Shown: piece after piece, positions 31,101 through 34,100 of the stretch
Numbering within the stretch: the first letter of the stretch is position 1
Layout of the letters: each line of letters starts with the position of its first letter
DNA from: Escherichia coli
Lineage (GTDB): Bacteria; Pseudomonadota; Gammaproteobacteria; Enterobacterales; Enterobacteriaceae
Assembly (NCBI RefSeq): GCF_003018255.1
Contig: NZ_CP027440.1
Reading direction: 5' to 3' (one strand)
Length of the DNA: 64,000 nt
Position numbers: made by a program

Positions 31101-34100
31101 TCGATTTGCTTATACAGCGAGTCGAAACGTTTACTCTCGATCACCGAGGAGAACGTCAGGCAAACCTGTTCTGTATCCGCCGGACAGCTGTTACTGGACG
31201 TTACCAGCGAAACCGCATTGCTTTTCTTATTGTCGGAAGCCGCCAGTTCTTGCGCGTCCTCAAGACTAAACGACACTTTTTCAACCGCACGCAGGCTACG
31301 CGCAGCTTCTGACTGAGTGTTGAAGGTGGCAATTGTCGTGTTACCCGCCACGCAAGTAACGTCCTCACCAGGTGTAAATGTAAAGCCATCGCTGGACTCA
31401 CCATTACAGGTAGCACCAGTTACCCGCTGGCTTCCGCCCAGGGTCAGATAACCCGTTTTCGTAGGAACAGGTTCTGGCTCCGGTTCTGGCTCTGGATCAG
31501 GTGTCGGTTCCGGCGTAGGTTCTGGGTCCGGCGTTGGCTCAGGCGTCGGCTCCGGGTTTGGTGTTGGATCAGGTTTCACTTCCGGCAAAGACCCTGTTCC
31601 AGAATCTACAGGCGGCGTATCGGAGGAAGATCCGGAGCCACCGCCATCACAACCGGCTAACAGGGTTGCACTCAAAATAGCCGCTAAAAGCGATTTCTTA
31701 TATTTAAATTTCTTATTCATTAATAACGCAAGTGACAAAACAAAGTTAAAAGATTCGTAACCGGGGAAATAGTTTTATGCTTTATCTTCTTTAATAACTT
31801 CCTCCATTCTTAAGAAAACGGCATCATTGATAGAAAAACAGGTGAAATTTATAAGAATAACCCCTATTCGATGTCTGGCTGGTTATTTTTACGAAATTTC
31901 AATAAACAAAAAATTAACAACCTTTCACAACGTAACTATATAAATTTGTTGGTAGTTTTAACGATTAAGATTGCAAAAGCAACAGATAGAACGGTGTTTG
32001 CTCATCAAGCGAACATAATTAATACTGACTTGTTTTGCGTGATAAATAATAGATGTTCTCACGCTCTTAATTATTTAGCAGGTTATCTGAACGCGAAACA
32101 TTATTGCCACATGGATAATAAAGCGGGAAATAATTTTCCATTAATAAGACAGAGTAATGTAAACGAAGCCGGATGATATTAACGATCATCCGGCTTTATT
32201 GACTTACGAAACTAACATCCCGGTAAACACATACGCCTGCAACAGCGTGATAATGCCGATAACGCTGGCAAAAATCAGACTGTGCTTCACGGTGTAGCGG
32301 AACAGTTCAGATTCCCGGCCCACCATGCCCGTCGCGGCGCAGGCCACGGCGATAGATTGCGGGGAGATCATCTTGCCAGTTACGCCGCCGCTGGTATTTG
32401 CTGCCACCAGCAGGGTGTCAGAGACGTTGATTTGCTGCGCCGTGGTCGATTGCAGTGAACCAAACAGGGCGTTAGAGGAGGTGTCCGAGCCGGTAAGGAA
32501 TACGCCCAGCCAGCCGAGAAACGGTGAGAAAAACGGGAACATTACGCCTGTACCAGCCAGTACCAGCGCCAGCGTGGTGGACATGCCGGAATAGTTGGTC
32601 ACGAAGGCAAATGCCAGCACCATGCCAATCGACAGTATCGGCCACTTCAGACTAATTAGCGTTTCGGCAAAGACACCAATACCTTTCTTGATCCCCACGC
32701 CGAGGATGAAGATCGAGATAATCGCCGCAATAAAAATAGCGGTGCCACCAGCAGAGAGGGGGTCGAATTTAAACACCGCGTCCATTGGCGTCGGCTGGGC
32801 GACAATGGGGGCCGCTTTCAACACTTGTTGATGCAAATGAGGGATCTGGAAATTAATCACCAGCGAATAAAACGCGCCGCCCGGAGCAAATAACGCTTTA
32901 AACGGCTTCATGGTCCAGATGGTGACCAACACCGTTAAGATTAAAAACGGTGACCACGCACGAATGATTTGCCCCAGACGATATTCTGAAGGCACGGGAC
33001 CGCCAGAAGACGGTTTATTCACCACCATCGCACCTGCGGATTGTCCCATACTGATTGCCGTTTCGGTATTTTTTGGCCGCCAGACTTTAAGAAATAAAGA
33101 AAGTGAGACGATACTCACCAGCGCCGAAGTAATATCCGGCAGTTCCGGACCAATATAGTTAGAGGTAAAGAACTGAGTGACAGCGAAGCTTCCCCCTGCA
33201 ACCAGCGCCGCTGGCCACGTCTCTTTCACCCCTTTCCAGCCGTCCATCATTGCTACCAGCCAGAACGGCACAAGAACCGACAGGAACGGTAACTGACGTC
33301 CCGCCATTGCGCCAATGTCGAACGGATCGATTCCCGTTACCTGACCGGCGACCAGAATTGGCACACCCAACGCACCAAACGCCACCGGCGCAGTGTTGGC
33401 AATCAGACACAGCCCCGCCGCGTATAGCGGTTTGAAGCCCAGGCCCACCAGTAGAGCACCGGTAATCGCCACCGGTGCGCCAAAGCCAGCCGCCCCTTCC
33501 AGCAGCGCACCAAAGGAGAAACCAATCAGTAACACCTGCAAACGCTGATCGTCGGTGATGGAGATAACCGAGCTGCGGATAATATCGAACTGGCCGCTGG
33601 CAACGGTTAATTTATACAGGAATACCGCCGCGACAATAATCCACGCAATAGGCCATAAACCATAAATAAAGCCATAGCCTGCAGCAGCAAATGCCATATC
33701 AATCGGCATTTTAAAGGCGAATATCGCAATCAGAATAGATAATATAAGGGTTATTGCTCCAGCGACATGTCCTTTCAGACGTAATACCGCGAGTGCAACG
33801 AAGAAGAATATTATTGGGATCAGGGCGACCAGAGCGGATAGCCCCAGTCCTCCCATCGGCATATACATTTGGGTCCAGGTAACCATATTGTTCAGTCTCT
33901 TATTATCTTTATATGCTTGATATACTTAAGGTTGTAATAAGCAAAAGAGGACTGAACTGTAAAATATAGGCGTTATACTTTACAGCAACAGTACGCCGCT
34001 AACGCAATTGCTACCTCTGGCATAACAAGTATATCGGGTAAGGGTTTCTGTTCCGCACACGCAGGCGCAGAGTATCGTTAAGATGTCCATATTGTTGTTT

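Follow-up and report, generated by a model that had tools for sequence, protein, structure and literature searches.

The 483-bp spacer between glcA and sslE is, with high probability, the already known H-NS-silenced, Fis-activated promoter and long leader of the sslE/type II secretion operon. We studied it in a stretch of 64,000 nucleotides from an Escherichia coli contig (NZ_CP027440.1), referred to here as the window. The regulation of this region has already been worked out experimentally, and the feature is an ordinary and known one. Anatomy, composition, conservation and orthology were computed here; start mapping, H-NS/StpA binding, thermoregulation and Fis dependence are taken from the literature, and from the two together we infer the exact +1 and the two promoter hexamers in this strain. 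SslE acts as a mucinase and a biofilm factor and is a vaccine candidate that is broadly conserved in E. coli; the same operon codes for the type II secretion system through which enterotoxigenic E. coli (ETEC) exports heat-labile toxin. The spacer sets the timing of the switch for this secretion system, off at ambient temperature and on in the host. Our additions are the positions assigned on this allele to the start site, the hexamers and the Fis sites, and a population-level constraint on a 69-bp Fis/core promoter block in an otherwise fast-evolving spacer, both of them useful for annotation but unsurprising.

On the minus strand, sslE starts with the ATG at 31720 (protein beginning MNKKFKYKK...) and glcA ends with its stop at 32204, and these two positions fix the bounds of the spacer as read from the sequence:

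31721-32203, minus strand: complete glcA-sslE spacer, holding the sslE regulatory region; 483 bp, GC 0.32, without RefSeq annotation
27164-31720, minus strand: sslE (yghJ), lipoprotein metalloprotease, first gene of the sslE-pppA-gspS2(yghG)-gspC-M operon
32166-32196, minus strand: glcA intrinsic-terminator-like hairpin, marking where the glc operon ends; stem of 12 bp, loop of 7 nt, weak T tail

The spacer therefore lies directly upstream of sslE and downstream of glcA. The gene names match the RefSeq annotation of strain GF131, whose genome is collinear with 15265-52205 of the window and whose spacer is 99.8% identical. No annotation falls under the spacer in the RefSeq genomes examined, K-12 included. 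A sequence-only reading of the window had described an AT-rich gap of about 450 bp between sslE and glcA; the AT-richness stands, but the true spacer is 483 bp long rather than 447. The 447 bp of that reading (31721-32167) amount to the spacer minus the glcA terminator hairpin. GC content is 0.311 in 31721-32167 and 0.321 in the full spacer, compared with 0.52 for the 64-kb window, 0.516 for sslE and 0.53 for glcA, and just 0.18% of 447-bp windows across the 64 kb equal the AT-richness of 31721-32167. A poly-A/T segment beside the sslE start, also noted earlier, is present in modest form, as A/T runs of 4-6 bases that include sense-strand TTTT at 31751 and 31740. The distal 38 bp of the spacer are the glcA terminator, the one meaningful element returned by a search of the spacer for direct and inverted repeats, and its hairpin is the sole part of the spacer kept in genomes with sslE deleted.

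That the spacer hides an unannotated gene, either a small protein encoded on the plus strand at 31871-32176 (101 aa) or a small RNA, is extremely unlikely. The 101-codon frame is somewhat long for DNA of 31% GC, its N-terminal 72 codons are open in all E. coli alleles examined, and the region counts among the "promoter islands," where both strands carry many potential starts (Panyukov & Ozoline 2013, PMC3661553). The frame, however, owes its conservation to running antisense through the conserved promoter block. Its length ranges from 72 to 120 codons across strains through a T-run indel (72 aa in K-12 and other strains), it is closed in E. albertii, and it is unannotated in K-12 and other RefSeq genomes even though the K-12 annotation contains many small proteins. 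It has no Pfam match, and an Rfam search of 30500-35000 at E<=1 placed no family in the spacer. This sole sizeable ORF, broken in other strains and absent in E. albertii, was rejected, in keeping with the earlier statement that the gap carries no supportable ORF. The only real Rfam match in 30500-35000, C0719, lies in the neighboring spacer.

Evidence that the spacer is the sslE promoter comes chiefly from published work. In Tan et al. 2016 (PMC5012682), 5'RACE in UTI89 located the sslE start site, consistent with its position in ETEC H10407 as mapped by Yang et al. 2007, and sslE is described as co-transcribed with 13 downstream type II secretion system genes. The same study describes binding of H-NS and StpA to the sslE regulatory region, blocking open-complex formation, with a temperature-dependent repression of the sslE (yghJ) promoter that is seen at 22 C in data on ETEC, UTI89 and EC958. 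It further describes activation by Fis, for which site F2 (-41 to -68) is needed in UTI89 and mutation of site F1 (-138) is without effect in reporter assays, and strain-to-strain variation in both expression level and H-NS dependence. In K-12, the yghJ/glcA spacer is bound by H-NS in all ChIP-chip datasets compared and is itself the listed promoter island (PMC3661553). The mapped start, the co-transcription and the active promoter fragments considered below bear out the proposal that the tract holds the promoter of the sslE-pppA-yghG-gsp operon; H-NS/StpA binding and the K-12 ChIP-chip data do the same for the possible silencer sites, and the published geometry, which puts the start 227 nt upstream of the ATG, for the leader. 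Published work on the locus thus describes a nearby start and a regulated promoter rather than a distant start or a constitutive promoter.

For this strain, +1 was reconstructed from the Fis-site coordinates and cloning primers of Tan et al. 2016 combined with the window sequence. The geometry required F1 to be centered at -138 and three Fis 15-mers to overlap within -41 to -68. When it was applied to the window and to the CM2 allele, which matches both UTI89 primers, a single solution emerged, +1 at A31947, giving a 227-nt untranslated region and the following features:

31947, minus strand: probable sslE transcription start (+1, A), the unique geometry solution, reconstructed for this strain
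31977-31982, minus strand: predicted -35 hexamer TTGCTT (-35 to -30), from the derived start site
31954-31960, minus strand: predicted -10 region TAAAACT (-13 to -7), a weak TATAAT match with a 16-17 nt spacer
31989-32014, minus strand: Fis region F2, -67 to -42, three overlapping G-N13-C 15-mers
32078-32092, minus strand: putative Fis site F1 (GTTCAGATAACCTGC), a Fis-type 15-mer centered at -138
31721-31947, minus strand: sslE 5' untranslated leader, AU-rich, 227 nt, GC 0.29, its extent set by the predicted +1

Upstream of A31947 the sequence reads TTGCTT-N16-TAAAAC, and the three overlapping F2 15-mers (32014-32000, 32010-31996 and 32003-31989) lie upstream of the -35 hexamer, with F1 at -138. 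The stricter rule for Fis sites, G-N2-notT-R-N5-Y-notA-N2-C, passes just two of the three F2 15-mers and has no three-site solution, whereas the G-N13-C core rule gives one. With +1 at A31947, the fragment of Tan et al. 2016 (primers 5570/5571) corresponds to 32203-31915 of the window, or -257 to +33; the UTI89 primer sites in the window are 32203-32184 and 31936-31915, each with a single mismatch, and both primers are exact in the CM2 allele. A scan of 31500-32400 for strict sigma-70 consensus promoters found 0 against 2.4 expected, missing the promoter because the TAAAACT -10 region is too weak, and the promoter call accordingly rests on literature coordinates and not on sequence strength.

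From these placements a working model of the switch can be drawn. A weak sigma-70 promoter (TTGCTT, TAAAACT) would fire at about A31947, leaving a 227-nt AU-rich leader before the sslE ATG, and the entire AT-rich tract on both sides of +1 would serve as the platform to which H-NS and StpA bind. At low temperature these proteins may coat or bridge the DNA, so that no open complex forms; at 37 C the repression would be lifted. Fis bound at the three overlapping sites (32014-31989), just upstream of the -35 hexamer, would activate the promoter and counter H-NS, and the distal 38 bp would insulate the sslE operon from the glc operon. Repression after a shift to 22 C is reportedly 168-fold.

The AT-rich tract could also be seen as mainly a silent junction from the horizontal acquisition of sslE-gsp, coated by H-NS and yielding abortive transcription, with sslE mRNA arising largely by read-through from glcA, an account to which we assign very little probability. 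The T tail of the glcA terminator is poor (CGTTTACATT), about a quarter of genomes lack all or part of the sslE-gsp cluster, and transcription from promoter islands is reportedly suppressed (PMC3661553). However, 5'RACE shows a defined start within the spacer, and a fragment starting past the glcA stop codon gives ~410 Miller units in an F2-dependent manner (both from PMC5012682). In addition, lux is expressed in the mouse gut from a 484-bp IHE3034 fragment amplified as the predicted promoter region of sslE (Nesta et al. 2014, PMC4014459), and the core promoter block is clearly under purifying selection. The junction is moreover old, because the spacer is syntenic in E. albertii. Deletions affecting sslE-gsp include an IS4-linked example and an internal deletion in K-12.

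Returning to the silenced and thermoregulated promoter, composition is the only H-NS signature found in the spacer, with no further one in motif content or AA/TT periodicity. As in H-NS targets, AT content exceeds the genome average over several hundred bp (GC 0.31 versus 0.52). The region is said to have predicted curvature; by a crude curvature proxy, AA/TT power at 10-11.25 bp, it does not rise above dinucleotide shuffles (p ~0.3). A high-affinity 10-bp H-NS motif, tCGATAAATT, has been described, and yghJ is among the genes with multiple sequences resembling the primary or secondary motif (Lang et al. 2007, PMC2094087). With up to two mismatches allowed, one match falls in the spacer, TATATAAATT at 31937-31946 (+2 to +11), and 31600-32300 holds 16 matches at three mismatches; the motif is not enriched window-wide (67 matches versus 60.3 +/- 8.3 expected). 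The K-12 island 3117080_374 (yghJ/glcA) is the orthologous spacer and corresponds by coordinate offset to about 31666-32039 of the window. TANNNT, a -10-like pattern, occurs 25 times versus 32 +/- 4.8 in shuffles, showing no excess, and by such simple proxies, as distinct from PlatProm, the promoter density of the spacer is within compositional expectation (0 strict sites versus 2.4). Unlike most promoter islands (PMC3661553), the sslE spacer has a characterized and productive promoter.

Comparison across genomes singles out the promoter itself. Of 5426 complete E. coli genomes, 4068 carry the spacer at >=80% coverage; in the loci examined its neighbors are always sslE and glcA, and it is syntenic in E. 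albertii and in Escherichia sp. E1V33. Its best conserved part, both within E. coli and in E. albertii, is the 69-bp F2/core promoter block. Among genomes matching this block, 3421 of 3961 reach an identity of 99% or more, compared with 174 of 2645 for the leader segment next to it. Identity over -68 to +1 is 1.00 with K-12, 0.99 with E1V33 and 0.81 with E. albertii, where four-fold degenerate sites of glcA give 0.889, 0.846 and 0.658, respectively, and the comparison clearly points to purifying selection on the core promoter block. The F2/core promoter block of the window is identical to that of K-12 and most E. coli genomes. F2 is unchanged in six of seven aligned E. coli alleles, CM2 having one substitution at 31994; the TTGCTT and TAAAACT elements are invariant across the aligned E. 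coli alleles, and the former becomes TTGATT in E. albertii. Over the whole spacer, the window allele shares ~95% identity with K-12-type alleles and 97% with the UTI89-like CM2 allele; it carries several substitutions in the leader, and its T-run, at about -99 to -105, is interrupted and shorter.

Given a start 227 nt upstream of the ATG, about half of the spacer is a long 5' untranslated region. This leader is reportedly part of the region that H-NS needs for full repression, said to extend from -321 to +301. Whether it also holds a post-transcriptional element, such as an RNA thermometer, a uORF, or a CsrA/sRNA target at the GGAGG block near 31805-31766, deserves mention, although we judge this improbable. 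The leader is long, and no Shine-Dalgarno motif lies within 20 nt of the sslE ATG. A 10-codon uORF (ATGGAGGAAG...TAA, 31807-31775) is intact in all seven E. coli alleles compared, with only conservative changes, and E. albertii retains GGAGG and CATAAAACTATTTC. Slight constraint is evident from +101 to +227 (identity 0.74, versus 0.66 at four-fold degenerate sites), and the 22 nt at 31890-31911 are imperfectly complementary to the start-codon region (I1), a pairing that appears in the minimum free energy structure.

Other properties of the leader argue against such an element. The fold z-score is +0.56, with 138 of 200 shuffles folding as well, and the leader is therefore not unusually structured. 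The AU-rich I1 pairing, with 77% complementarity, is disrupted in E. albertii without compensation. Too few species (E. albertii, Escherichia sp. E1V33 and one short MAG contig) matched a degenerate sslE-start pattern in a search of genome contigs, making covariation analysis impracticable. A thermometer or other structured leader was rejected on the fold z-score, the lack of an Rfam family match, and an I1 pairing without covariation support. The uORF has no Shine-Dalgarno motif ahead of it, and its ATG is not conserved in E. albertii, for which reason it was demoted to a low-probability lead. The segment from +2 to +100 evolves approximately neutrally, and the thermoregulation, Fis and TypA effects on sslE published in PMC5012682 are at the transcript level. 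It is likewise doubtful that the Shine-Dalgarno-less leader and the GGAGG/uORF-like block (31807-31766) form a second, post-transcriptional layer, acting as a decoy ribosome binding site, as a CsrA/sRNA target, or through TypA-dependent initiation. If they did, this layer and the T-run length polymorphism at 32046-32052 could together explain strain differences in SslE output at 37 C.

The transcriptional switch that we favor has close counterparts among known systems. The yghJ (sslE) promoter of ETEC H10407 and uropathogenic UTI89 is the same locus with the same flanking genes and operon, and it combines AT-richness with cold repression by H-NS/StpA and activation by Fis; the window allele differs from those alleles, and expression strength and H-NS dependence are strain specific in the literature. 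The eltAB operon of ETEC (PMC3153253) is similarly repressed by H-NS at low temperature with a contribution from AT-rich DNA downstream of the start. The sslE operon is distinct from it and adds a Fis activation module, and the curvature predicted for such regions is not reproduced by our periodicity test. A further parallel is the divergent gspA-gspC region of K-12 T2SS-alpha, a type II secretion operon that is reportedly H-NS-silenced (Francetic et al. 2000) and that, like the sslE spacer, is listed as a promoter island (PMC3661553). The two are unrelated in locus and sequence, and T2SS-alpha is cryptic in the laboratory, unlike the sslE promoter, which in many strains is active at 37 C.

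The glcA-sslE spacer is an already characterised regulatory region, and the sequence-only reading, which took it for an AT-rich promoter region of the sslE operon with possible silencer sites, interpreted it correctly. The landmarks are as follows.

31720, minus strand: ATG of sslE (yghJ), whose product begins MNKKFKYKKSLLAAILSATLLAGC..., a lipoprotein signal peptide
31721-32203: glcA-sslE intergenic spacer, 483 bp, between two minus-strand genes
32196-32166: glcA terminator hairpin, 12-bp stem, also recovered as inverted repeat I3
32204, minus strand: end of glcA, from the sequence

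Gene names were confirmed through the RefSeq annotation of GF131, whose spacer is 99.8% identical and whose gene order is glcD-E-F-G-B-A, then sslE-pppA-gspS2(yghG)-gspC-D-E-F-G-H-I-J-K-L-yghD(gspM); window 15265-52205 is collinear with GF131 at 97.1% identity. The interval first marked, 31721-32167, is the spacer without the terminator hairpin. Its coordinates were essentially right and its AT richness is confirmed, with a GC content of 0.311 versus 0.52 for the window, 0.516 for sslE, and 0.53 for glcA; within the 64-kb window, only 0.18% of 447-bp stretches have a GC content this low. Two further stretches are equally AT-rich in 447-bp windows, ~42609-43340 (minimum GC 0.298), which by offset to GF131 is the divergent yghO/fatty acyl-AMP ligase spacer, and ~55951-56690 (minimum 0.313). 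Both could be further H-NS-type regulatory regions.

Tan et al. 2016 (PMC5012682) report an sslE start site mapped by 5'RACE in UTI89, consistent with the one mapped in ETEC H10407 (Yang et al. 2007) and in agreement with the promoter proposed for the spacer. This result contradicts the view that sslE mRNA arises mainly by read-through from glcA, as does the promoter activity published for fragments beginning downstream of the glcA stop codon. A 484-bp IHE3034 fragment, the predicted sslE promoter, gave luciferase expression in the mouse intestine (Nesta et al. 2014, PMC4014459). As summarised by Tan et al., Yang et al. found that sslE is co-transcribed with 13 downstream T2SS genes, that H-NS and StpA repress the operon in a temperature-dependent manner, with expression higher at 37 C than at 22 C, and that both proteins, bound to the regulatory region, prevent open complexes from forming. 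For UTI89 and EC958, Tan et al. confirmed that H-NS represses at 22 C, and they name Fis and TypA as positive regulators. Fis activation needs F2, a cluster of three overlapping 15-mers at -41 to -68, placed directly upstream of the -35 element; F1, a Fis site centred at -138, is dispensable (PMC5012682). The suspected silencing is likewise borne out in K-12, where the yghJ/glcA spacer (3117080_374) is among the "promoter islands" of the genome and is H-NS bound in all ChIP-chip datasets compared (Grainger, Kahramanoglou, and Oshima; Panyukov & Ozoline 2013, PMC3661553). Lang et al. 2007 (PMC2094087) list yghJ among H-NS-sensitive genes with multiple primary and secondary motif-like sequences. 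Start-site mapping, H-NS ChIP, and temperature-dependent reporters, the three checks that the sequence-only reading proposed, have thus all been carried out, and each bears out its interpretation.

Element positions on the window were reconstructed from published primers and Fis coordinates rather than read off published figures. The pQF50-sslE cloning primers map to 32203-32184 and 31936-31915, with one mismatch each (the CM2 allele matches exactly), so the start site must fall between them. All Fis-type G-N13-C 15-mers were listed, and a start was required to have one centred at -138 and three overlapping within -41 to -68. Exactly one solution exists, both in the window and in CM2, with a 227-nt 5' UTR.

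A31947, minus strand: inferred sslE +1, from this geometry test
32092-32078, minus strand: F1 Fis site, placed by the +1 solution
32014-31989, minus strand: F2 Fis region, placed by the +1 solution
31982-31977, minus strand: inferred -35 hexamer TTGCTT, exactly -35 to -30
31960-31954, minus strand: inferred -10 region TAAAACT, -13 to -7

Given this start, the published fragment spans -257 to +33, and F2 adjoins the -35 element upstream, matching the wording of the paper. Under a stricter Fis rule just two of the three F2 15-mers qualify, and a strict promoter scan found no promoter because the -35/-10 hexamers are weak. Yang et al. 2007 reportedly found that full repression requires -321 to +301, a range that here would cover ~32268-31647, the whole spacer and the edges of both genes.

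Comparison across Escherichia, with glcA four-fold degenerate sites as the neutral yardstick, bears on this placement.

Identity of the window to K-12, Escherichia sp. E1V33, and E. albertii, in that order
glcA four-fold sites: 0.889, 0.846, 0.658
Upstream part, -218 to -69: 0.93, 0.93, 0.72
Block -68 to +1: 1.00, 0.99, 0.81
Leader +2 to +100: 0.94, 0.95, 0.62
Distal leader +101 to +227: 0.95, 0.95, 0.74

The glcA 3' end and terminator aside, conservation in the spacer is highest at -68 to +1; the leader from +2 to +100 evolves approximately neutrally, and the upstream part and distal leader are under mild constraint. In 5426 complete E. coli genomes, 3421 of 3961 matches to the 69-bp block reach at least 99% identity, against only 174 of 2645 for the 99-nt leader segment next to it. 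E. albertii has TTGATT as its -35 hexamer and retains an A/T-rich -10 region at unchanged spacing. Selection thus acts on the stretch to which the reconstruction assigns the Fis sites and core promoter, and this conservation is independent, comparative support for their putative placement.

Beyond composition, sequence added no evidence for H-NS. The 10-bp high-affinity motif is not enriched, with window-wide counts equal to chance and one spacer match at ≤2 mismatches (TATATAAATT, +2 to +11), and AA/TT helical periodicity in the spacer is not above shuffles. TANNNT hexamers resembling -10 elements are three times as dense as in the window on average, but their count, 25, is slightly below the 32 ± 4.8 predicted from dinucleotide composition. 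The published H-NS/StpA and Fis model is the best-supported mechanism: in it, a weak sigma-70 promoter is embedded in ~0.5 kb of 31% GC DNA and, at low temperature, covered by H-NS/StpA filaments or bridges, which Fis counteracts from its position beside the -35 element.

Our findings do not depart from this published picture; the only residual novelty is a possible post-transcriptional role of the long leader, and such a control layer finds little support. It is favoured by the length of the leader, by the absence of a Shine-Dalgarno motif in the 20 nt before the sslE ATG (31721-31740), and by a GGAGG ~80 nt upstream, inside a 10-codon uORF (31807-31775, MEEVIKEDKA; 31766-31807 region, minus strand) that is intact in 7/7 E. 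coli alleles. However, the uORF lacks its ATG in E. albertii, the leader has no more stable a fold than shuffled sequences (z = +0.56), the AU-rich pairing of +37 to +58 with the region of the start codon shows no compensatory changes in E. albertii, and the regulation described in the literature is at the mRNA level.

Of 5426 complete E. coli genomes, 4068 carry the spacer at ≥80% coverage and a further 231 match it only in part. Sorted by identity, alleles lie at ≥99% in 346 genomes, 95-99% in 2897, 90-95% in 937, and 80-90% in 119. In one of the genomes with a partial match, FDAARGOS_1265 (4562-6042), IS4 adjoins the glcA terminator, only the terminator end of the spacer is kept, and IS4 stands in place of sslE, pppA, yghG, and gspC-J, with gspK truncated. 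IS4-linked deletion is one route to the loss of the spacer in about a quarter of E. coli genomes. In K-12, the spacer and sslE are retained alongside the known internal gsp deletion. The divergent CB209 allele (89%) has several leader variants in common with E. albertii, e.g., GGGATAGT and TGAATAATTG, pointing to an ancient allelic lineage or to recombination at the spacer.

A hidden gene in the spacer was rejected, and the earlier judgement that no ORF there could be supported stands. No Rfam family was found even at E ≤ 1, and neither K-12 MG1655 nor the other RefSeq genomes examined annotate a feature within it. Only one ORF is of appreciable size (31871-32176, plus strand, 101 aa). Nothing in Pfam matches it, and its length varies among strains: a T-run indel shortens it to 72 codons in K-12, CAVP773, and Escherichia sp. 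E1V33, further strains have still other lengths, and in E. albertii the frame is closed. It crosses the conserved promoter block in antisense orientation, which accounts for the part that remains open. The T run (32046-32052, ~-99 to -105) is TTATTTAT here and T6, T7, or T8 elsewhere, and besides breaking this spurious ORF in K-12 its variation shifts F1-promoter spacing by 1-2 bp.

Within sslE, which is 9 nt shorter here than in GF131, codons ~40-88 (~31460-31600) encode a Pro/Glu/Thr-rich short-repeat linker after the lipobox, with sub-threshold Pfam matches to PARP and TonB polyproline. The glcA-glcB spacer holds a full-length C0719 sRNA match (RF00117; 294 bits, E 1.6e-77) at 33965-34186 on the plus strand, the glc genes being on the other strand. 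Left of yghD/gspM, collinearity with GF131, the closest relative for the sslE region, is lost over window 1-15264, where capsule and ABC transporter genes are found in GF131; the stretch adjoining the T2SS-beta cluster is a variable one.
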